DNA of 64,000 nt from positions 132,879 through 196,878 of the forward strand of contig CAZJEO010000002.1 of assembly GCA_964545065.1 (NCBI GenBank), written 5' to 3'. The DNA comes from Candidatus Woesearchaeota archaeon (GTDB lineage Archaea > Nanobdellota > Nanobdellia > Pacearchaeales > GW2011-AR1). This document shows, one piece after another, positions 1,163 to 47,908 of the stretch. The first letter of the stretch is position 1. Every line of letters starts with the position of its first letter. Under the pieces are notes generated by a model, which had not been told where the DNA came from, made no database searches, and worked only from the letters and a program-made list of their open reading frames with translations. The translations under genes and the position numbers were made by a program.

Positions 1163-1960
1163 ATGAATATAAAAAAGATTTTAAAAACAAAATATAGAGG
1201 ATTATTTATTGGATTGCTTGTTGTTCTGATATATTATTGGGCAATTACTGGTACAGAAACTAATATAATCAATTTCTTTGGGGGTTTTAAATTCATGGCT
1301 GATTTTGTTGGCAGAATGTTCCCTCCAGATGTGTCAAATCTAGGGAGATTTATTTCAAAAGCATTGGAAACTTTACAAATGGCAATTGTGGGTTCTACAA
1401 TCGGTGCTCTAGTTGCTTTTCCACTATCTTTTTTAGCTGCAAGAAACGTTACACCAAATAAATTTGTTTATCATACAGTTAGAACAATTTTTGATATTTT
1501 TCGAGGAATAAATGAAATTGTGTGGGGTTTAATTTTCGTTTCAATGGTTGGACTTGGACCTTTTCCAGGGGTTTTGGCTCTGAGTGTTCATGTTACTGGT
1601 GCACTAGGAAGACATTTTTCAGAATCAATAGAAACTGTAGATCCAAAAACAATTAAAGCAATTGTTTCAACAGGTGCAAATAAAATACAAGTGGTCCTTC
1701 GTGGAATTTTGCCACAAGTAAAACCCTTGTTCATTAACTATTCATTATATTATACTGAAAATAATTTTAGAGCAGCTACTGTTTTAGGGTTGGTTGGAGC
1801 AGGAGGTATTGGTATGGAATTATTAACAAGTATGAGATTATTCAAAAACCAAGAAGTATTAACAATCCTTATAATTATGGTGGTGATGGTCATAGGAATA
1901 GATAGATTTAGTGCATATATCCGAAAAAGAGTTGTAAAAGGAAAGGGTGTTTCTTATTAA
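1163..1960 (+). CDS. phnE: ABC transporter permease, PhnE type
   Basis: Multi-TM protein of 265 aa that follows phnC. It has a PhnE-like EAA-type loop region (ESIETVDPKTIKAIVSTGANKIQVV). Confidence 0.8.
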   Translation: MNIKKILKTKYRGLFIGLLVVLIYYWAITGTETNIINFFGGFKFMADFVGRMFPPDVSNLGRFISKALETLQMAIVGSTIGALVAFPLSFLAARNVTPNKFVYHTVRTIFDIFRGINEIVWGLIFVSMVGLGPFPGVLALSVHVTGALGRHFSESIETVDPKTIKAIVSTGANKIQVVLRGILPQVKPLFINYSLYYTENNFRAATVLGLVGAGGIGMELLTSMRLFKNQEVLTILIIMVVMVIGIDRFSAYIRKRVVKGKGVSY

Positions 1961-2742: not shown

Positions 2743-3798
2743 TTATATTTCCAAAAGATACTTTAATGTCTCATCTTTTAATTTTTCTTCAGAAGAATCA
2801 TTAATTATAAAATTTCTGCCTTCTCTGGAAAGTTTATCTCTCTCTATTCTGGGCAATAAGAAAAATTTATCTATTTCTTTTTGTATTTTTTCTAGATTAA
2901 ATGGAACTTTTTTAACAGACTTTGTAGTTAAGGTCTCAAAAGTATCTAAATCAAAAAGTATTACCGGAGTTCCACATGCTAAAGATTCTCGTGGTGGAAG
3001 AGGGTGGCTATTTCTTTTACTAAAAAATAAACTTAAATCTGATAAGTTGTAATAATCTGGAAGTTTCTTATTGAGAATGTGCGGAATGTGAGTTACATTT
3101 TTAAATTTTTTATTTTTAAAGTTCTCGTCTTTTAATTCCCCGATTAAGACGAATTTTTTATCTTGATTTTTTTGAATTAACTCAAGTAAGTAATCAGAGC
3201 CTTGCTCAAATTCAATTCTACCAACATAGATAAGAATTTTATCCTTATCATTAAATCCGAACTTGCTTCTTAACTGTTTCTTATTCTTTGGCCTGAATAT
3301 ATGGACATTTATGGGAACTAGTAAACAAAATATCTTTTTTTTACTCAGGAAGAGGAACTTCCTCATAATTTCTCTTACCTTTTTACCACTACTTAAGAAA
3401 CGATCTGTAAAAAATTGAGAAAATAGAAAAAAACAATTTCTTAAATTAATTTTGGGGTTTCCATGAAGATAATTTATTGATTTGGTTTTTGTGAAGAATG
3501 TTGCTAAAAATAATGCCAATGCAATCTCTGCCATGCCAGTCAAGCTAACAACTGCTCCTATTTTATTATCCTTGCAGAATTTCCTTAATCTAAATGGAAC
3601 GATAAATTTTTTATCGGGAAATTCTGTTATTTTCGTTCTTTTTAATTTATACTTTTTCCTATCAAATTTGCTTGCGCAAACAATGAATAATTCTACATCT
3701 TTTGGAAAAATTTTTTCATAATAACTCATAATCACCTGTCTTGCATGATCATAATGGCCAAGGAAGAAACAAATTCTTTTTATCATTATGGGGTACAT
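2743..3798 (-). CDS. Glycosyltransferase, GT-B fold (GT1/GT4-like)
   Basis: C-terminal PPRESLACGTPVILFD resembles the EX7E/nucleotide-sugar-binding region of GT4 enzymes. Lies in the glycan locus. Confidence 0.7.
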   Translation of the reverse strand: MYPIMIKRICFFLGHYDHARQVIMSYYEKIFPKDVELFIVCASKFDRKKYKLKRTKITEFPDKKFIVPFRLRKFCKDNKIGAVVSLTGMAEIALALFLATFFTKTKSINYLHGNPKINLRNCFFLFSQFFTDRFLSSGKKVREIMRKFLFLSKKKIFCLLVPINVHIFRPKNKKQLRSKFGFNDKDKILIYVGRIEFEQGSDYLLELIQKNQDKKFVLIGELKDENFKNKKFKNVTHIPHILNKKLPDYYNLSDLSLFFSKRNSHPLPPRESLACGTPVILFDLDTFETLTTKSVKKVPFNLEKIQKEIDKFFLLPRIERDKLSREGRNFIINDSSEEKLKDETLKYLLEI

Positions 3799-3921
3799 AA
3801 AAAGAGAAGTTTAAAAACATTGCTTCACTGAAATAATAAATACTTTTATTTGAACAAAATTAATTTGAAAAATAGATTTTAACACCATAATTGTTATAAA
3901 GAGAACTATTTACAAGAACAT

Positions 3922-5070
3922 ATGGAGGGAGAAAATAAAGAACTGGAAACTTTAAAAAAAGAGAATGAGAAACTTACTGAGGAATTAAAAAGATTTCAAA
4001 ACCAAGGCAATAACAAGAAAAAGAATAACTATTATTCCCACTATAAAGCTGCGCACCACACAGAAAGGATAGCGCAATTGAAAAAAGGGGGGGTAATCTA
4101 CCCAGTATTTGTGCAAATTGATTTAATCAATGCCTGTAATATTGATTGCAGTTTTTGTTCGTATAAGTTAGGAAATTATTCCTCAGATCAGATAAAAGAT
4201 TTTGATCGTGGAGACAAATTAAATAAAAATATTGTCTTTAGGATATTAAGAGAAATGAAGAAAGCAGGGGTAAAAGCAGTAGAGTGGAGCGGAGGGGGGG
4301 AGCCAACTCTTCATCCAGATTGGAAAGATATTGTCAAAGTAGCAAAAGAGTTGGGATATGAACAAGCACTTGTGACTAATGGGACACTCTTGGACGATGA
4401 AGGAATTGATTTAATAAAAGATTTTGAATGGGTTCGATTTTCTATTGATGCTTCGACAGAGGAAACATACAATCAAGTAAAAAGAAAACCAGAATTAAAG
4501 TTGGCCTTGGAAAATCTTAAAAGGTTAGTTGAAATAAAAAATCCTGAAAATATTGTTGGAGTCAGTTTTGTTGTGTGTAAAGAAAATTATCATGAAATTC
4601 ATGAGGCGGCAAGGTTAGCAAAAACTCTTGGCGCAGACAATATCAGATTCTCTCTTGCTTATACTCCCCAGGGAAAAGAAATGTTTGATGGGATATGGGA
4701 TAACACAATAGAACAAATAGAAAAAGCAAAACAAGAAAAAACAGAAGATTTTAAAGTTTTTGCGTTTCCGAATAGGATTGATGAAATATCGCAAAAGACA
4801 AAAAGTGATGCTTGTTATTTTCATGAATTTGTTGCAACTATTGGTGCTAATGGGGCTGTTTACCCTTGTTGTTTATTAAAATACAATCCCAAGTTTAATT
4901 TTGGAAATTTAAATGATAACTCATTTGAGGACATATGGTTTGGAGACAAAAGAAAAGAATTTGTAGGCCAAATTAGAAGAGGTTGTAATTACAGTTGCTG
5001 GATGACTGATAAAAATAATTTTATAAGTTACTTTTTAGAAAGAAACCCATCACATGTGAATTTTATTTAA
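3922..5070 (+). CDS. Radical SAM protein with a Cys-rich C-terminal (SPASM/twitch-like) region and an N-terminal coiled coil
   Basis: CNIDCSFCSY (CxxxCxxC) and the GGGEPT SAM-binding motif. The C-terminus has CYFHEF...YPCCLL...CNYSC. Confidence 0.8.
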   Translation: MEGENKELETLKKENEKLTEELKRFQNQGNNKKKNNYYSHYKAAHHTERIAQLKKGGVIYPVFVQIDLINACNIDCSFCSYKLGNYSSDQIKDFDRGDKLNKNIVFRILREMKKAGVKAVEWSGGGEPTLHPDWKDIVKVAKELGYEQALVTNGTLLDDEGIDLIKDFEWVRFSIDASTEETYNQVKRKPELKLALENLKRLVEIKNPENIVGVSFVVCKENYHEIHEAARLAKTLGADNIRFSLAYTPQGKEMFDGIWDNTIEQIEKAKQEKTEDFKVFAFPNRIDEISQKTKSDACYFHEFVATIGANGAVYPCCLLKYNPKFNFGNLNDNSFEDIWFGDKRKEFVGQIRRGCNYSCWMTDKNNFISYFLERNPSHVNFI

Positions 5071-5071
5071 G

Positions 5072-6397
5072 ATGGAACTAACTGACATGAAAAAATCAAT
5101 TCCAAAAATAGTAATAATTGGAGCAGGGCTAACTGGTTTGAGCTTAGCATATTTCCTTGAGGAAGAAAATAAAAAAGATTACATCTTGCTCGAAGGTTCT
5201 TCTGAAATCGGGGGATTATGTAAAAGTATTAGGAAAAATGGATTTGTATTTGATTTAGCTCCCCACTTGTTGCACCTAAAAAATCCAGAAATTATAGAAT
5301 TAGTGAAAAAGCTATTAGGGGATGAACTAACACTAAATACCCGAAAAGCGGGAATAGTTTTTGGTGGTAAAATTATTCCGTACCCTTTTCAGTATAATCT
5401 TTACCATTTAGATGAAGAGATAAAAAAAGAATGCTTGGATGGTGCTATTGAAGCAAATAAAAAATTTAGTGAAGAAAAAGAATCTGATAATTTTGGGGAG
5501 TGGATAAAAATGACTTTTGGAGAGGGTATTGCAAAATACTTCATGACTCCATATAATAAAAAATATTATTGTGTTGATCCTAATGAACTAACCATGGATT
5601 TTTTTAAAAAATATATCCCTAAGACACGTTTTGAAGAAATAAGGCAAGGAGCAATATCTGACATGTCTGATTCTAAGGCTGGATACTTTCATGAGTTTTA
5701 TTACATAAAAAGCGGGGGAATTGATTATCTGCCAAAAGCTATGGCTAAGGGAGTTCAAAACATTAGACTAGATGAAAAGGTGATTCGGATTGATTTGGAT
5801 AAGAAAATAGTATTCACAGAAAACTCAGAGTATAATTATACTAATTTGGTTTCCACGATTCCTATTAATAAACTTATTCAATTGATGGGTAGAGTTCCGG
5901 ATGAAATTAAAATTGCACGTGAAAAATTAAGATGCAATAGCATAAGTCTTGTCTTTTTGGGAATTAATCGGCCCAAGATCTCTGACCATCATTGGTTATA
6001 CTTGCCTCAAGAAGATATTTTGCCTTTTAGAATAACTTTTCACAAAAATCTTTCAGAAAATATGGTCCCTACAAATATGAGTTCAATTTGTGCAGAGTAT
6101 TCTTATCTTGGTGATAAAAAATTTACAGATGATGAAATAATTGAAAAAACAATTGATGACTTAATTAAAATTGGTGTTATTAAAAACAAAGAAGAAATAA
6201 TTTTTAAAGACTCTATTGATTTGCCTTATGCTTATCCTATCTTTGATTTAAATAGAAAAGAAAATTTAAAATTGATAAAAGATTATTTAGATAAACATGA
6301 GATAATATCTATTGGACGATTTGGAACATGGGAGTATTCTCCTATGGAAGACGGAATTATCCAGAGCAAGCATGCTGTCTCTAGATTAATCTCATAA
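5072..6397 (+). CDS. FAD/NAD(P)-dependent oxidoreductase, UDP-galactopyranose-mutase-like
   Basis: N-terminal dinucleotide fold IVIIGAGLTGLSLAYFLEE. The C-terminal GRFGTWEYSPMEDGI resembles the UGM/amine-oxidase family C-terminus. Confidence 0.6.
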   Translation: MELTDMKKSIPKIVIIGAGLTGLSLAYFLEEENKKDYILLEGSSEIGGLCKSIRKNGFVFDLAPHLLHLKNPEIIELVKKLLGDELTLNTRKAGIVFGGKIIPYPFQYNLYHLDEEIKKECLDGAIEANKKFSEEKESDNFGEWIKMTFGEGIAKYFMTPYNKKYYCVDPNELTMDFFKKYIPKTRFEEIRQGAISDMSDSKAGYFHEFYYIKSGGIDYLPKAMAKGVQNIRLDEKVIRIDLDKKIVFTENSEYNYTNLVSTIPINKLIQLMGRVPDEIKIAREKLRCNSISLVFLGINRPKISDHHWLYLPQEDILPFRITFHKNLSENMVPTNMSSICAEYSYLGDKKFTDDEIIEKTIDDLIKIGVIKNKEEIIFKDSIDLPYAYPIFDLNRKENLKLIKDYLDKHEIISIGRFGTWEYSPMEDGIIQSKHAVSRLIS

Positions 6398-7293: not shown

Positions 7294-8655
7294 GAATATT
7301 TCAGTAAAAACCATGGATGATAAACAAAAGAGAAGAATCTTATTTATCTATCCTGCAAATGACGGTGAATCATTGGGGATAGAGTATCTTTCTGGGAGTC
7401 TTAGAAAAAGGGGGCATAAAACAGATTTAATCCTCTTTAGAGAAATTGAGGGGTTTGAAAGGGAATTAAAACAAAATATAAAAAGTTTTGACCCGGATTT
7501 TGTGTGCCTTTCTGTTGTTACAGACAATTATTCTTGGGCATGCAAGATATCAAGAATTATTAAAAAAGTAAAGGAAATTCCAATAGTTTTTGGAGGAATT
7601 CAAGTAACCTCCTGTCCTGAAGAAGTTATAAGTAATGATTTTGTAGATTACGCAGTCCTTGGAGAAGGGGAAGAAGCGATAGTCGAATTGGTTGAAAATC
7701 CTAAAAATCCAAACATAAAAAATGTCTGGTTTAAGAAAAATGGTAAAATAATTAAAAACAACTTAAGATCCTTAGTTCAAAATCTAGATTTATTGTCTTT
7801 CCCAGATAAAGAACTTTTTTATAAAAAAACTCCTCACCTTAAGAATAATTATTGGTGCATAACTAGTAGGGGATGTCCTTTTGGGTGTAGTTATTGCTTT
7901 AATCACTATCTCAGAAAATTGTATGAGGGACAGAGATGGTTAAGGAGAAGGAGCGTTGAGAATGTTATTGAAGAGTTAAAGATAATGAAAGAGAAAGGGG
8001 GCTGTAAAAATGTGCTTTTTTTTGATGATTGTTTTACCTCTGATAAAGAATGGTTAAGAAAATTCATTAAAGAATATAAAAAAGAAATCAATCTTCCTTT
8101 TGAATCTATCTCTATTCCGATTTTTATTGATAAAGAAGTTGCTTCTCTTTTAAAAGAAGGAGGGTGTATAAAAGTCCAAATGGGTGTTCAGACGCCTATT
8201 GAAAGAATAAGAAAAGAAATATGCAAGAGAGGAGATACTAATGAAGATATTGAAATAGCAGTTAATGAACTTAAAAAACAAAAGATAGCGGTCTCATTAG
8301 ATCACATATTTTCGTTGCCTTCTGAAAAAATAGAAGACTATGATGAGGGGTTAAAATTCTATATAAAACTTAAACCAACAATATTCAAAATCTTTAAGTT
8401 GGGTTATTACCCCAATACAGAAATAATGAAGATAGGTAAAGAATATAAAACAATAGATGAAGAAACTGAAAAGAAAATCATTGGGGGGGATTTTTCGTCG
8501 GGAATTATGCTGCATCGCAAAGAGGGAGAAAAGAAATTTGAAGAAATTTTTAAATTTATCCAATGGATTCCAATTTTTCCGAGAGGGTTTAGTAGATTTC
8601 TTCTTAGAACAAGGTTATATCGCAAAATTCCAAAAAATAAGTATATTACTAAAAT
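7204..8655 (+). repeat. Left copy of a 1452 nt apparently identical direct repeat (partner 9715-11166)
   Basis: Constant offset of 2511 nt. The forward ORF and three independent reverse/alternate-frame ORFs translate identically in both copies. The first mismatch I found is at 8656/11167. Confidence 0.85.
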
Positions 8656-8788
8656 CCCTATTGTAATTCCAGATTTTTATACAATAAAATTAATGAAACG
8701 TTTTTTTAGGGTAAGGAAGAATAGGAGGATAGTAAAAATTAAGTTGTATAAATCTAAATTGAAAAACATCTTCTTGGGAAATAATTAA
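7313..8788 (+). CDS. B12-binding-domain radical SAM protein, copy A
   Basis: N-terminal cobalamin-binding-like domain (RRILFIYPANDGESLGIEYLSG), then CPFGCSYC (CxxxCxxC). ATG 7313 is preferred as the start. In-frame ATG 7265 and the track start 7187 both overlap the upstream gene. Confidence 0.8.
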   Translation: MDDKQKRRILFIYPANDGESLGIEYLSGSLRKRGHKTDLILFREIEGFERELKQNIKSFDPDFVCLSVVTDNYSWACKISRIIKKVKEIPIVFGGIQVTSCPEEVISNDFVDYAVLGEGEEAIVELVENPKNPNIKNVWFKKNGKIIKNNLRSLVQNLDLLSFPDKELFYKKTPHLKNNYWCITSRGCPFGCSYCFNHYLRKLYEGQRWLRRRSVENVIEELKIMKEKGGCKNVLFFDDCFTSDKEWLRKFIKEYKKEINLPFESISIPIFIDKEVASLLKEGGCIKVQMGVQTPIERIRKEICKRGDTNEDIEIAVNELKKQKIAVSLDHIFSLPSEKIEDYDEGLKFYIKLKPTIFKIFKLGYYPNTEIMKIGKEYKTIDEETEKKIIGGDFSSGIMLHRKEGEKKFEEIFKFIQWIPIFPRGFSRFLLRTRLYRKIPKNKYITKIPIVIPDFYTIKLMKRFFRVRKNRRIVKIKLYKSKLKNIFLGNN

Positions 8789-8791
8789 AAA

Positions 8792-9280
8792 ATGAGAAAA
8801 CTAAACTTCGGATGTGGAAAGGATGTAAGGAAAGGATGGGATAATTGTGATATCCAAAAAGAAGCCCCCATTAGTTTTAATTTTAATAAATTCCCTTATC
8901 CTTTAAAAAAGAACTATTATGATTACCTTCGGATAAATTCAGTTTTAGATTATGTAGAAAAACCAGAAGAAGTTCTCAATGAGTTATGGAAACATTCTGC
9001 TAAAGAGGGTATAATCGAAATTTGGTGTGGTTATTGGAATTGTATAGGGTCTTGGAATCTATTAATCTCCAAAGGAGGATTTTCCCGTGAATGTTTTCTA
9101 TTATTTATTAAAAGTGATTATATAATTAATCAAAAAAGAAAATTTAAGATAGAACTTTTAGAATTAATCCCAACCACTGTTGGAAAATGGATTTACCCGA
9201 AATGTTTAAGGGAAAAACTGTCTCTTTTTTTCGGAGGAATTATTTCGCAGGTTCATGTTAAACTGAAAGTTATTAAATAA
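8792..9280 (+). CDS. Small class I SAM-dependent methyltransferase-like protein
   Basis: LNFGCGKD...GWDNCD motif I and a VLDYVEKPEEVLNEL region. Same family as the 2102-2614 gene. Confidence 0.6.
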   Translation: MRKLNFGCGKDVRKGWDNCDIQKEAPISFNFNKFPYPLKKNYYDYLRINSVLDYVEKPEEVLNELWKHSAKEGIIEIWCGYWNCIGSWNLLISKGGFSRECFLLFIKSDYIINQKRKFKIELLELIPTTVGKWIYPKCLREKLSLFFGGIISQVHVKLKVIK

Positions 9281-44426: not shown

Positions 44427-44828
44427 ATGAAAAGAATAACAGCGTCGGGAAAAAGGAAAACTTCTGTTGCTAGAGCAATTCTTACAGAAGGTACTGGAAA
44501 AATAACAATCAATAAAAAAGATTATAAAAATTTACAAATATTTGATAAATTACAAATTGAAGAACCTTTGAAAATCACTCAAGAAGTTCTTGGAAAAATA
44601 AATTTTGATGTTACAATATTTGTTAGAGGTGGTGGAGAAAAAGGGCAAATAGAAGCTGCAAGACTTGCATTGGCTAAATCAATAGTTGAATTTACAAAAT
44701 CAAAAGAATTAACAGACGCGTTCTTATCTTATGACAGAAATATGTTGATTGCCGATGTAAGAAGGAAAGAAGCTTACAAACCAGGAGATAGTAAGGCGAG
44801 AAGTAAGAGGCAGAGTTCTAAGAGATAG
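44427..44828 (+). CDS. rps9: 30S ribosomal protein S9 (uS9)
   Basis: MKRITASGKRKTSVARAIL...GGGEKGQIEAARLALAKSIVEF...KPGDSKARSKRQSSKR. An alternative upstream ATG at 44340 (ATGA overlap with L13) would add 29 aa. Confidence 0.9.
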   Translation: MKRITASGKRKTSVARAILTEGTGKITINKKDYKNLQIFDKLQIEEPLKITQEVLGKINFDVTIFVRGGGEKGQIEAARLALAKSIVEFTKSKELTDAFLSYDRNMLIADVRRKEAYKPGDSKARSKRQSSKR

Positions 44829-44837
44829 TCAGTTTTG

Positions 44838-45317
44838 TCATTTTAATTTCTTTTCCATAGTCTTGGATTTTGTTTTAAATCCGGGTCCTTCCCAAAAATC
44901 TTGTTTAATCACCTTATAACCTAATTTTTTATAAAAAGGGTATGCTGTTTCTGTTGGATGAAGGATTATTTTGTTGATTTTTTTTGATTTTGCGAATTTT
45001 TCTATGAACTGCATTAACTTTGATCCATAGCCTTGACCGAGATGTTTGTGGTCTATGTACAGACCCCCGACTCTTCCAGATTTGAGATTAATATAAATGC
45101 ATCCCAAAATCTTGTCTTGTTTTGTCAACACAAACACTTTCCTTTTTTCCAGGCTCTCTATGATTTGTTTTGGAGAATTTTCTTTCTTCAGAAGGTCTAT
45201 TGCCGGCCGAGGGTAATCATTCATATTTATCTTTTCTAGAGTCTGTCGTACCAGGGTTGAAATTCTCCGAGCATTTTCTGGCTGAGCTTTTTTTATCTTG
45301 ATTGAATTATTTGTCAT
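44838..45317 (-). CDS. GNAT family N-acetyltransferase
   Basis: Motif A GLYIDHKHLGQGYGSKLMQFIEKFA and a C-terminal YPFYKKLGYKV. 4 nt overlap with the upstream gene. Confidence 0.8.
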   Translation of the reverse strand: MTNNSIKIKKAQPENARRISTLVRQTLEKINMNDYPRPAIDLLKKENSPKQIIESLEKRKVFVLTKQDKILGCIYINLKSGRVGGLYIDHKHLGQGYGSKLMQFIEKFAKSKKINKIILHPTETAYPFYKKLGYKVIKQDFWEGPGFKTKSKTMEKKLK

Positions 45318-45946
45318 TTTATTCCTAAATCCTCTAGTTTATTCTGGACATGATTAAATAATGTTGAAGAGATTAATGGTTTGTGGGTGCCTTGGTGGGT
45401 TTGACCGTCGAATTTTATTTTTCCGAGATAAGTTTGGTTTCTTAATATTTTTTTCAAGCCATTGACAGAGAAATCATATTTTTTAGCTAATTGAGTTAAA
45501 CTTATTTTTTGATTTAAAAAATCTTGAAAAATTTCTTGAACAAGATAAGAATCTTCTGCCTGAACTAATTTTTTGTTCTCGAGTTTGTAGCCGAATGGTG
45601 CTCGAGTTACAACATTGCCATCACGAGCTTTTAGAACCATTCCTTTTTTTGTTCTCTTGGAGATTGATTTTTCAGATTTTCTAAAAGTATCTAAGATTGC
45701 TCCATCTATTTTCTCTTCTAAAAATATTTTAAAATCTTCTTCGCTATTTGGAGCAAAATAATGGCAAATAAAACATAATGTTACTAAGTTATCTACTTTA
45801 TCTTCTCCTTCATCAACCTTCATTTTGATATGATGTATTTCTAATTCTTCTGAATTTCCAAGATGATTGCATTTTTGGCAACGGAATTTGTCTCTACTAA
45901 AAACTTCTGACTTTGTTTTGAATTGTGTTGATGGTCTTTTTGACAT
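45314..45946 (-). CDS. HNH nuclease domain fused to a serine-recombinase-type 'Recombinase' DNA-binding domain (no resolvase catalytic domain)
   Basis: The N-terminus CQKCNH...ELEIHHIKMK...DNLVTLCFICH is an HNH motif. It is followed by ISKRTKKGMVLKARDGNVVTRAPFGYKLENKKLVQAEDSYLVQEIFQDFLNQKISLTQLAKKY...ILRNQTYLGKIKF...HKPLISSTLFNHVQ, which matches my recollection of the alpha-E/recombinase-domain pattern of large serine recombinases. Confidence 0.65.
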   Translation of the reverse strand: MSKRPSTQFKTKSEVFSRDKFRCQKCNHLGNSEELEIHHIKMKVDEGEDKVDNLVTLCFICHYFAPNSEEDFKIFLEEKIDGAILDTFRKSEKSISKRTKKGMVLKARDGNVVTRAPFGYKLENKKLVQAEDSYLVQEIFQDFLNQKISLTQLAKKYDFSVNGLKKILRNQTYLGKIKFDGQTHQGTHKPLISSTLFNHVQNKLEDLGIK

Positions 45947-45947
45947 T

Positions 45948-46775
45948 TTACATACTATCTAAGGGTGAAGGAATTTTTTTAAGTTCTTCTGTTGATATGT
46001 GCGTATAGATTTGCGTTGTACTTAAATCTGCATGACCTAAAAGTTCTTGAATTTTTCTTATGTCTATTCCATTTTCTAACAAGTGTGTTGCAAAGCTATG
46101 CCTCAAGGTGTGTGGATGAACTTCTTTATTGATTCCTGCTTTTTGTGCTGCGGTTTTCACTATTTTTTGAATGTTTCTATCAGATAGTTTTCCTTTTGGG
46201 CCTGAAAAAAGATATTCTTCATTCTTTTCTTTTTGTTTTTGTGTTTGTTTTTTTAAACTTTTTAAGAGGAATTTAGGAATATTAAAAATTCTGTCTTTTC
46301 TCCCCTTGCCCATTCTGACATACCCAATCATTTCTTCAAAATTCAAATCATTTATTTTGAGATTTATTAGCTCTGAAACTCTAAAACCACAGGCATATGT
46401 TAAAGAAACCATGAGCTTGCTTTTTTTAGTTGAAACTGCATTAAGCAATTTTTTTAATTCATCTTTTGTTAAAACCGCGGGGAGTTTTTTCTCTCTTTTT
46501 GGACGTTTTATACCCGCAGTTATATCTTTTCCTAAAATTGATGAATATGCCAACCTTAATGCAGATAAAAAAACAATTATTGTTGAAGCTGCTTGCTCTG
46601 TTAATTTTTCGGCCATAAATGCCTTTACATCATCTATCCCTGTTTTTTCGGGTTGTTTGCCACAGAAATCTAAAAGTTCTGAATTTGCTCTAAGATAGTT
46701 CCTGATTGTATAATCTGAATTTTTTGAAATTTTTAGTTCTACTCGAAGTTTTTCTAAAAATTCCTCTTTTTTCAT
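45948..46775 (-). CDS. xerA: Tyrosine recombinase, XerA/XerC/XerD-like
   Basis: C-terminal catalytic region GFRVSEL...HTLRHSFATHLLENGIDIRKIQELLGHADLSTTQIYTH, and an N-terminal SAM-like core-binding domain. Confidence 0.85.
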   Translation of the reverse strand: MKKEEFLEKLRVELKISKNSDYTIRNYLRANSELLDFCGKQPEKTGIDDVKAFMAEKLTEQAASTIIVFLSALRLAYSSILGKDITAGIKRPKREKKLPAVLTKDELKKLLNAVSTKKSKLMVSLTYACGFRVSELINLKINDLNFEEMIGYVRMGKGRKDRIFNIPKFLLKSLKKQTQKQKEKNEEYLFSGPKGKLSDRNIQKIVKTAAQKAGINKEVHPHTLRHSFATHLLENGIDIRKIQELLGHADLSTTQIYTHISTEELKKIPSPLDSM

Positions 46776-46815
46776 ATAGTTGGTTGTACGAACCTTTTTA
46801 TAAATTTATCGCTTG

Positions 46816-46839
46816 TTCGCACAATATAGGTTGTACGAA
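46816..46839. promoter_or_regulatory. 9-6-9 inverted repeat upstream of xerA (candidate recombinase core/dif-like site or operator)
   Basis: ttcgcacaa-tatagg-ttgtacgaa, with 8 of 9 arm positions complementary. A further direct copy, ggttgtacgaa, is at 46782-46792. Confidence 0.35.
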
Positions 46840-46869
46840 GTATTTGCGTGTAGAAGTTAATTTTGAAGA

Positions 46870-47085
46870 TTATTCATTAAAATGTTTATCAACAACACTG
46901 CGAAGGACTGCACATCCGGATGGATCGTTTTGGGTTTTGATGCATGCACGAAGGTTGGGTTTGTTCAGAGCCATAAAATGTTTTATTCTCGTATTTTCTT
47001 CAACACCTGCTTCTTTACAAGCTGTTTGATATAATGGATATAAGTTATTCACAAAAAAACTTAATGGTCTTCTCTCCGTTATCAA
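46870..47085 (-). CDS. Hypothetical small protein
   Basis: ORF only (TTG start in the track). No family recognised. Confidence 0.3.
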   Translation of the reverse strand: MITERRPLSFFVNNLYPLYQTACKEAGVEENTRIKHFMALNKPNLRACIKTQNDPSGCAVLRSVVDKHFNE

Positions 47086-47195
47086 AGCCTTTATTTAATA
47101 TTTCTTCAAACATTGATATGTAATATCCATCTAAAGCCATTTTTTATCAAAAAGCTCCAACTTTTTAAGCATTTATGTCCTCTGCAAAAATGAAA

Positions 47196-47438
47196 TTACG
47201 TCTCATTAGTGGACTTGTGTAATTTCACTAAGATGCCCTGCAATTTTTCTTTGGTTAGATCGAATGAGCAAGAATTGCCTCTTTTTACTCTGGGGTCTTG
47301 TGTATCATAGGGTTCTCCGACCATTATTCGATCATATTTGCAGTATTTTGCTCCAAGGGATCCTGGAAGGCCCCAATAGAAAGGGCATCCTTTCCCGTTG
47401 GAATAATTTTGGCATAATAGTGTAGTCATTTTTGTCAT
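47196..47438 (-). CDS. Hypothetical Cys-rich small protein
   Basis: The start is set at MTKMTTLLCQNYSNGKGCPFYW (ATG 47438). Four Cys residues. No family recognised. Confidence 0.35.
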   Translation of the reverse strand: MTKMTTLLCQNYSNGKGCPFYWGLPGSLGAKYCKYDRIMVGEPYDTQDPRVKRGNSCSFDLTKEKLQGILVKLHKSTNET

Positions 47439-47510
47439 TTTTCCCACCCCATCTAGATTTTTAATGATTTGTATCTTTAAGAACAAGCTTTCGTGTGCAC
47501 TTAGCTGACC

Positions 47511-47807
47511 TTAGTTATGTTCGTGTGGATTTTCTTTTATGATGTGGGAGGTTACACGAATTAAACCAAGACTAACAACTGTTATTAATGAAGATGTTAA
47601 AATGCTTGAAAGAGCGGTGCTTTTTGCATCCACGAAAAAATTAACAAAAATTTGAAATGTGTCAAAGATGGTCTGCCTCCAAGTGAATGCAATTGTAAAA
47701 CTTAATGTTAAAACAACCAGTAATCTAATTTCTTTTCTGTGTTCTTTTTTAAATCGTCTTGCTTCTCTACGCATCCTTAGAAATTTATATTTGCTTACCT
47801 GATTCAT
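47511..47807 (-). CDS. Small membrane protein (basic N-terminus, two TM segments)
   Basis: MRREARRFKKEHRKEIRLLVVLTLSFTIAFTW... followed by a second hydrophobic segment. Confidence 0.45.
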   Translation of the reverse strand: MNQVSKYKFLRMRREARRFKKEHRKEIRLLVVLTLSFTIAFTWRQTIFDTFQIFVNFFVDAKSTALSSILTSSLITVVSLGLIRVTSHIIKENPHEHN

Positions 47808-47908
47808 TTTAAGATATAGTTTTTAGGATTTATTAATTTTTACGTAAATTTCAAATATCAATTTTGTTACTGTCGGGCATTGTGCACTAAGGTTACCTTA
47901 GTTAGTTC

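Follow-up and report, generated by a model that had tools for sequence, protein, structure and literature searches.

An HNH nuclease–recombinase-domain chimera encoded next to xerA and a dif-like site near the replication origin of a Pacearchaeales archaeon

A 64,000-nt window of an archaeal genome (Candidatus Woesearchaeota archaeon, GTDB order Pacearchaeales, assembly GCA_964545065.1, contig CAZJEO010000002.1, positions 132,879 to 196,878 of the forward strand) was analyzed for a gene encoding a chimeric protein, hereafter HNH-RD, in which an HNH nuclease domain is joined to the recombinase domain (RD) of a serine recombinase. The gene lies about 4 kb from oriC, with the rps9 operon on one side and oriC/cdc6 on the other. 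It is preceded by xerA, which encodes an archaeal Xer-type tyrosine recombinase and has a dif-like site directly upstream, and is followed by a gene for a GNAT acetyltransferase; two copies of a palindromic motif, termed M, lie on the far side of the dif-like site (Table 1). All three genes are read from the minus strand; the GNAT and HNH-RD open reading frames (ORFs) overlap by 4 nt, and 1 nt separates HNH-RD from xerA, just as reported in a preliminary description made from the DNA letters without database searches. Unless a comparison locus is named, all coordinates are positions in the window. The assembly spans 782 kb and the genome is 85% complete; genes in comparison loci were either called simply as ORFs starting with ATG or taken over from the collection.

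Table 1. Coordinates of genes, protein domains and candidate DNA sites at the locus, and of the related features in comparison loci.
Feature	Position	Strand	Basis and remarks
GNAT acetyltransferase, 159 aa	44838..45317	minus	Pfam Acetyltransf_10/7/1
HNH-RD chimera, 210 aa	45314..45946	minus	Pfam HNH + Recombinase; single-copy in genome
RD ("type B"), HNH-RD residues 109–207	45326..45622	minus	71–73% identity to RD of G106, G300 and G249 serine recombinases
Family-specific helical linker (FAP..F..Y..EKIDG..L.TFRK) and helix E remnant (..KRTKKGM..), HNH-RD residues 66–108	45623..45751	minus	Residue conservation, model
Predicted HNH (beta-beta-alpha-Me) nuclease domain with CxxC...CxxC zinc site, HNH-RD residues 18–64	45755..45895	minus	Residue conservation
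xerA, archaeal Xer-type tyrosine recombinase, 275 aa	45948..46775	minus	NCBIfam NF040815 + Pfam Phage_integrase
Extra XerA half-site GGTTGTACGAAC	46782..46793		Between TATA box (46797–46804) and xerA start codon; position kept in 8 loci
dif-like site, 28 bp, 11-6-11: TGTTCGCACAA TATAGG TTGTACGAAGT	46814..46841		Directly upstream of xerA; uniqueness, conservation
M site 1 GTGCACTTAGCTGACCTTAGT	47495..47515		Odd-spaced palindrome, candidate RD binding site; one of two genome copies
Small predicted membrane-protein gene, 98 aa	47511..47807	minus	Bracketed by both M sites
M site 2 GTGCACTAAGGTTACCTTAGT	47882..47902		Same orientation as M site 1
Intact serine recombinases, 256–259 aa	L044 (G106) 4088–4867; L045 (G300) 3641–4417; L046 (G249) 4306–5076		Catalytic domain + RD, without zinc ribbon
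Even palindromes	L034 ~5140–5228; L047 (G291) ~1300–1380		Type A form AATAAGGG-AA-CCCTTATT; type B form ACTTAGGG-CA-CCCTAAAT

The domain composition of HNH-RD was established by profile and structure searches. Profile hidden Markov models from Pfam matched HNH (PF01844; residues 23–62, 36.6 bits against a cutoff of 21.4) and Recombinase (PF07508; residues 132–205, 37.5 bits against a cutoff of 21.1), and gave no match to Resolvase (PF00239) at E ≤ 1 or to Zn_ribbon_recom. The protein ends about 5 residues past the RD, with neither the zinc-ribbon nor the coiled-coil domain of the large serine recombinase subfamily, and no Resolvase domain was found anywhere in the assembly. A profile built from 61 relatives and searched against the PDB retrieved the HNH domain of IscB (9k2z, 3e-9) and the RD of the A118 integrase (4kis, 5e-9). 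An AlphaFold2 (AF2) model (mean predicted local distance difference test score, pLDDT, of 88) was compared using Foldseek, and its C-terminal half superposed on a large serine recombinase–DNA complex (4kis/6dnw, E 5e-6, 122 aligned columns). The N-terminal part superposed on two HNH enzymes, 6ghc (McrA) and 4h9d (the Gme HNH nickase). The preliminary description had proposed an HNH nuclease standing in place of the Ser-nucleophile domain in front of a retained Recombinase domain, and this chimera is real.

Residue conservation was assessed over the same 61 relatives, and the catalytic HNH residues were also conserved when up to 110 relatives were compared. R18, D19, C23, K25, C26, C58, and C61 are invariant, and H38, H39, N53, and H62 are retained in at least 90%, so that the CxxC...HH...N...CxxCH motif read earlier from a single sequence is real; this pattern argues for a zinc-HNH active site that is predicted to be working. 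Invariant positions in the linker and helix E region are P66, L85, T87, F88, R89, and G102, and helices were predicted at residues 69–77, 82–92, and 95–108. Alignment with serine recombinases starts at residue 83, and by this measure only the C-terminal part (the last turns) of helix E appears to be retained; the earlier reading that both the alpha-E helix and the RD had been kept stands for the RD and the end of the helix, and not for the helix as a whole.

A protein database search with HNH-RD returned 1593 matches. Nearly all of the best 120 were HNH + Recombinase proteins of 205–215 aa at 50–86% identity, and the named organisms among these 120 were Pacearchaeota or Nanoarchaeota. The family comprises more than 100 close full-length relatives in Pacearchaeota-like DPANN archaea, is vertically inherited as a single-copy gene in a fixed slot, and represents a firmly established, conserved cellular gene. 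Full-length relatives were not found in IMG/VR or among GenBank phages, and a viral origin accordingly found no support. A literature search turned up no description of an HNH-plus-recombinase-domain protein or of this locus, in line with the earlier remark that the arrangement could not be matched to a described system. Some members are longer: P0012, P0070, and P0096 (323–337 aa) have an extra N-terminal PF13391 (HNH_2) domain before the HNH-RD part, and P0123 (389 aa) has a C-terminal extension.

The gene neighborhood was then compared across relatives. The 7 closest loci, including this one (relatives at 69–86% identity), have XerA followed by HNH-RD with 1–2-nt gaps, the pair being flanked on one side by the rpl18e-rpl13-rps9 operon and on the other, toward cdc6, by a set of small genes. 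Four more distant loci (55–70% identity) have instead a serine recombinase of 246–260 aa (Resolvase + Recombinase) upstream in the same operon, and the upstream neighbor was a site-specific recombinase in 11/11 loci with an active-looking HNH-RD. Since XerA fills this position in 7 loci and a serine recombinase in the 4 others, the conserved unit is, on solid grounds, a site-specific recombinase followed by HNH-RD, the recombinase coming from either of two unrelated families. About 25% of same-strand neighboring ORF pairs in the genome are spaced by −8 to +4 nt (a rough ORF-based count); because such tight spacing is common, linkage is argued from the adjacency that relatives conserve and not from the spacing. 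The GNAT gene was missing from 10/10 related loci, its slot there being empty or filled by NUDIX, HAD, or small ORFs, and it is lineage-specific cargo outside the conserved unit. Of the three-gene string that the preliminary description had treated as an operonic unit, the xerA–chimera pair recurs in relatives, and the GNAT gene belongs to this locus only. The rps9 and GNAT genes are convergent here, with 9 nt separating their stop codons (44828–44838).

HNH-RD was also compared with a 300-genome sample of the phylum. Matches were mostly to HNH-RD residues 83–209 and lay in ORFs of about 255 aa with an AAIYxRVSTEEQ serine active site. These serine recombinases fall into type A, which partners HNH-RD in the four loci above and whose RD shares only about 30% identity with the chimera RD, and type B, where this identity is 71–73%. 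Three members of this genome's family, G106, G300, and G249, have a type-B recombinase alone immediately after rps9, in the slot taken here by the xerA/HNH-RD pair. On a tree of RD sequences, type A formed a separate clade, and the chimera RD and type-B RDs fell within one clade, in which HNH forms, zinc-ribbon-only forms (HH lost), RD-only forms with an N-terminal coiled coil, and type-B recombinases were intermixed; such intermixing indicates that a single RD lineage has repeatedly exchanged or lost its N-terminal domain. By these comparisons the DNA-binding half of HNH-RD is, on solid grounds, orthologous to that of a resident serine recombinase. Degenerate relatives have lost the HNH histidines or the entire HNH domain with the RD intact, and this retention points to DNA binding as the core selected function. 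In G281 (L041) the chimera is split, with an HNH-only ORF of 121 aa (8543–8908) 1 nt after xerA and an RD-only ORF of 139 aa with an N-terminal coiled coil (2825–3244) located 5 kb away, both intact. One HNH-bearing representative, P0122, has an RD clustering with type-A serine recombinases, which implies that HNH has been joined to both RD subtypes. Three RD proteins occur within locus L036: a type-A serine recombinase, an HNH-RD, and a 146-aa coiled-coil RD-only protein (7444–7884).

XerA was assigned by NCBIfam NF040815 (XerA_Arch; 246.7 bits against a cutoff of 220) and Pfam Phage_integrase (169.8 bits, 6e-50), and shows the R..K..H-x-x-R..H..Y residues. A PF00589 search of the genome gave xerA and one weak match on another contig, and xerA is the sole full-length tyrosine recombinase in the assembly. 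Orthologues with 63–73% identity occupy the same locus in G031, G281, G237, G085, and G072. The site directly upstream of xerA matches the 11-6-11 architecture of archaeal dif (PMC2958812, PMC8371274). It is the sole exact match in the assembly, the one other match carrying 3 mismatches, which is the level obtained with a reversed-pattern control. The site is kept upstream of xerA or its operon in L048–L051, L061, L062, G031, G085, G281, and G072, and was present in 11/12 XerA-type loci (one from another family) versus 0/8 serine-recombinase-type loci. From its uniqueness and conservation it is the probable XerA crossover site. The inverted repeat at 46816–46839, which the preliminary description had suggested might accompany the fusion, thus goes with XerA instead. 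A position about 4 kb from oriC is unusual for a xerA/dif-like module.

Of the 14 genomes in family f1, 8 carry XerA in the slot close to rps9 and 4 carry a type-B serine recombinase there. No Phage_integrase domain was present in G300 or G016, and the tyrosine-recombinase-like genes of G106 are all weak. The idea that XerA and serine recombinase strictly exclude each other throughout the phylum was rejected, as G249 and G291 carry both; genomes without any tyrosine recombinase (E ≤ 1e-10) made up 15/40 of those with a full-length serine recombinase versus 41/261 of the others, which is an enrichment and not an exclusion. An rps9-adjacent position was likewise rejected as a general rule, since recombinases lie away from rps9 in genomes other than G072 and those of family f1.

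Candidate binding sites were found in the promoters of both recombinase types. The extra XerA half-site in the xerA promoter suggests an autoregulatory operator, a role assigned from its position, and serine-recombinase loci have an M-type half-site at the equivalent promoter position. Type-B serine recombinase promoters contain an even palindrome, ACTTAGGG-NN-CCCTAAGT, and type-A promoters another, AATAAGGG-AA-CCCTTATT, both with a central dinucleotide, and a half-site, CCTAAGTKCACA, stands just before the start codon in serine recombinase promoters. A resolvase gene preceded by res has this same arrangement, which is referred to here as res-like. Neither the even palindromes nor the promoter half-site were found in G000.

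The M motif (ACTWAGG-N3-CCTWAGTGCAC, also written GTGCAC-TWAGS-NNNN-CTWAG-T) occurs in exactly two copies in the assembly, both at this locus, 0.65 and 1.05 kb from the dif-like site; in L050 one M lies about 25 bp from dif. The arrangement of two M sites around a small gene is kept in L031, L036, L050, and G291, which include relatives of both recombinase types, and in some relatives (L034) 2–3 small ORFs lie between the M sites. The 98-aa membrane-protein gene enclosed here had no Pfam match, and its homologue in L036 had a weak DUF5654 match. The half-site of M, ACTWAGG, is also the half-site of the type-B even palindrome, M being one base pair shorter between the halves, and M motifs also occur near the type-B recombinases of the G106, G300, and G249 lineage. 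With 0–1 mismatch allowed, M was found in 17/21 genomes with an RD gene versus 1/13 without (two samples of family f1; related genomes), and since these genomes are related, this co-distribution is a lead suggesting that the RD recognizes M and not a statistic. Other roles for M were considered. As an operator of the neighboring winged helix-turn-helix (wHTH) proteins it is unlikely, because 8 genomes with neither M nor an RD gene still carry the wHTH gene; as origin recognition boxes it was rejected, because M occurs only at 47495 and 47882, outside oriC; and as a serine-recombinase crossover site it is unlikely, because the odd 7-3-7 core is centered on one base pair, which makes it unsuited to crossover at a central dinucleotide. 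Between M site 1 and the dif-like site, two short minus-strand ORFs (71 and 96 aa, 46870–47486) occupy the place held in L048, L049, and L061 by a single 133–145-aa gene upstream of xerA, of which they may be a decayed copy or a miscall.

Taken together, HNH-RD is read here as a serine-recombinase-derived, M-binding accessory or regulatory subunit and site-specific nickase or nuclease of an origin-proximal resolution module in which XerA exchanges strands at dif, a reading given a probability of about 0.5. A small serine recombinase would have become HNH-RD by replacement of its catalytic domain with a zinc-stabilized HNH domain, the end of helix E and the RD being kept. The protein would bind the two M palindromes (ACTWAGG-N3-CCTWAGT) as a dimer, act from there as the accessory or regulatory subunit, and nick or cut site-specifically through its HNH domain. 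XerA, the dif-like site, and the half-site would form a self-contained chromosome-resolution module, with strand exchange by XerA at dif, and M differs in spacing from the even palindromes much as the accessory sites of res do from site I.

Several observations weigh against this reading. The link between M and the RD is a correlation among non-independent genomes, and M could be bound by a different locus-specific protein. In this genome the distance from M to dif is too great for an accessory region of the cer/psi type. Serine and tyrosine recombinases share no mechanism, and with such unrelated chemistries it is not obvious that one accessory role would serve both. Operon-like spacing is also seen between unrelated genes in a compact genome, and G237 and G072 have XerA at this locus but no chimera, showing that XerA does not need HNH-RD. 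Finally, a nuclease targeting its own chromosome needs a control, and none was seen.

Among competing explanations, a homing-type nuclease, domesticated or still selfish, would cut cassette-free chromosomes at a specific site and have repair copy the recombinase/nuclease/cargo island in, holding the island at a single slot while letting its contents change. Free-standing homing endonucleases are modular, with a nuclease joined to a borrowed DNA-binding domain, and HNH-RD shares this design; the adjoining cargo varies (GNAT, HAD, APH, NUDIX), the recombinase type is swapped at one slot, the N-terminal domain was swapped several times on the RD tree, and the active, degenerate, split, and absent states resemble the life cycle of a homing gene. 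This explanation was nevertheless judged unlikely, given the single-copy gene in a fixed syntenic locus across genera at 50–86% identity, degenerate forms that are intact ORFs with a conserved RD and not pseudogenes, the lack of full-length relatives in the viral collections searched, and M sites located inside cassette-bearing genomes, where an M-recognizing nuclease would cut its own chromosome. Slightly less weight was given to a pure DNA-binding regulator or architectural protein, in which HNH would serve as a zinc-finger scaffold without cleavage and the protein would repress or organize M-bearing promoters. It would account for the many relatives in which the RD persists although the catalytic histidines, or HNH altogether, are gone, and for M sites and half-sites in promoters, where in serine recombinase operons they fall between the TATA box and the start codon, and resolvases do repress their own genes at res; it fits poorly with the clade of this gene, where at least 90% of sequences retain H38, H39, N53, and H62 and where R18 and D19 never vary.

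It is somewhat less probable again that HNH-RD has no functional link to XerA and is an independent nuclease (for example in repair or restriction of foreign DNA) that shares a compact operon. About a quarter of same-strand neighbors are equally tight, the locus can hold XerA without the chimera (G237, G072), and XerA of other archaea works alone in vitro (PMC2958812, PMC3646895); against this, a site-specific recombinase lies upstream in all 11 loci with an active-looking HNH-RD, though its family changes, and the split-off HNH half in G281 remains 1 nt after xerA. An anti-virus defense or toxin–antitoxin module, with a GNAT toxin and a nuclease effector, was considered very improbable. HNH nucleases and GNATs occur in both kinds of system, and PADLOC returned weak HNH-level matches to DpdF and ZorE, but these reflect the generic HNH core only (22 bits), with no match for the GNAT or XerA. 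The GNAT gene is missing from all 10 related loci, no antitoxin-like partner (ribbon-helix-helix, RHH, or DUF1778) was seen at the locus, and the locus is a conserved core region beside oriC, leaving the addiction or defense role raised in the preliminary description unsupported.

A further, more speculative extension of the accessory-subunit reading treats the rps9/oriC slot as a chromosome-resolution locus that may be run by either recombinase family. Under it, a small serine recombinase with a res-like site would resolve dimers in genera without any XerA (G300, G016; weak tyrosine-recombinase-like genes only in G106), and HNH-RD would be the surviving accessory-site subunit of that serine system, now working with XerA/dif and nicking or cutting at M, for example to determine topology or directionality or to eliminate dimers left unresolved. 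To our knowledge, chromosome dimer resolution has so far been seen only for tyrosine recombinases, and this extension is held to be doubtful, if less so than any of the competing explanations above.

If the accessory-subunit reading were true, a recombinase site-recognition module would have been re-used to aim a nuclease, giving a protein-guided counterpart of the IS607/TnpB pairs and possibly a compact scaffold for a site-specific nickase. Two unrelated recombinase families would alternate at one origin-proximal slot in DPANN archaea, and a serine recombinase acting as a cellular chromosome-dimer resolvase would become a testable idea. The dif-like site, M, and the even palindromes would then provide concrete candidate DNA sites for biochemical work on organisms that resist cultivation.

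HNH-RD was compared with known enzymes, and appears to be a modular site-specific nuclease or recombinase derivative, lacking a serine catalytic domain and having an HNH domain by both sequence and predicted fold. Large serine recombinases (the Listeria phage A118/LI integrase, 4KIS, and the TP901-1 integrase) share with it the RD after helix E and the end of helix E with ..RTK.G.., but have a Ser-nucleophile domain and a zinc ribbon/coiled coil, where HNH-RD, at 210 aa, has HNH instead. The DPANN serine recombinases with catalytic domain and RD (256–260 aa; G106, G300, G249) share the slot after rps9, an RD at 71–73% identity, and nearby M; unlike HNH-RD, they keep AAIYxRVSTEEQ and the promoter palindrome, and have no adjoining XerA. 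With the HNH nucleases IscB, McrA, and those of group II introns, HNH-RD has in common the CxxC...HH...N...CxxCH beta-beta-alpha-metal core. The IscB family model NF040563 matched the HNH part only (residues 7–78, 49.7 bits against a cutoff of 175), and HNH-RD has none of the RuvC, PLMP, and guide-RNA machinery of IscB; its targeting would come from the recombinase DNA-binding domain.

At the level of the locus, Xer genes adjoining their site are known from XerS/difSL, XerH/difH, and some archaeal xerA/dif modules (PMC5357621). Such single-recombinase modules have, as here, a recombinase gene directly preceded by a unique 11-6-11 site; they differ in lying near the terminus, whereas the present module has an origin-proximal position, an extra promoter half-site, and an HNH-RD gene after the recombinase. 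In Tn3/gamma-delta res and plasmid multimer resolution systems, the recombinase gene is preceded by its sites, as the serine recombinase genes of relatives are preceded by promoter palindromes, and the spacing of res accessory sites II and III is unlike that of site I, just as M shares a half-site with the even palindromes and differs in spacing; in contrast to res systems, no serine catalytic subunit remains in this genome, the two M sites are separated by hundreds of base pairs, and the crossover position is held by XerA/dif. The IS607 TnpA/TnpB pair, in which a nuclease gene comes after that of a serine recombinase, is an analogy only: compared with TnpB, HNH-RD is predicted to be protein-guided, is single-copy and chromosomal, and was seen with neither transposon ends nor a guide RNA.

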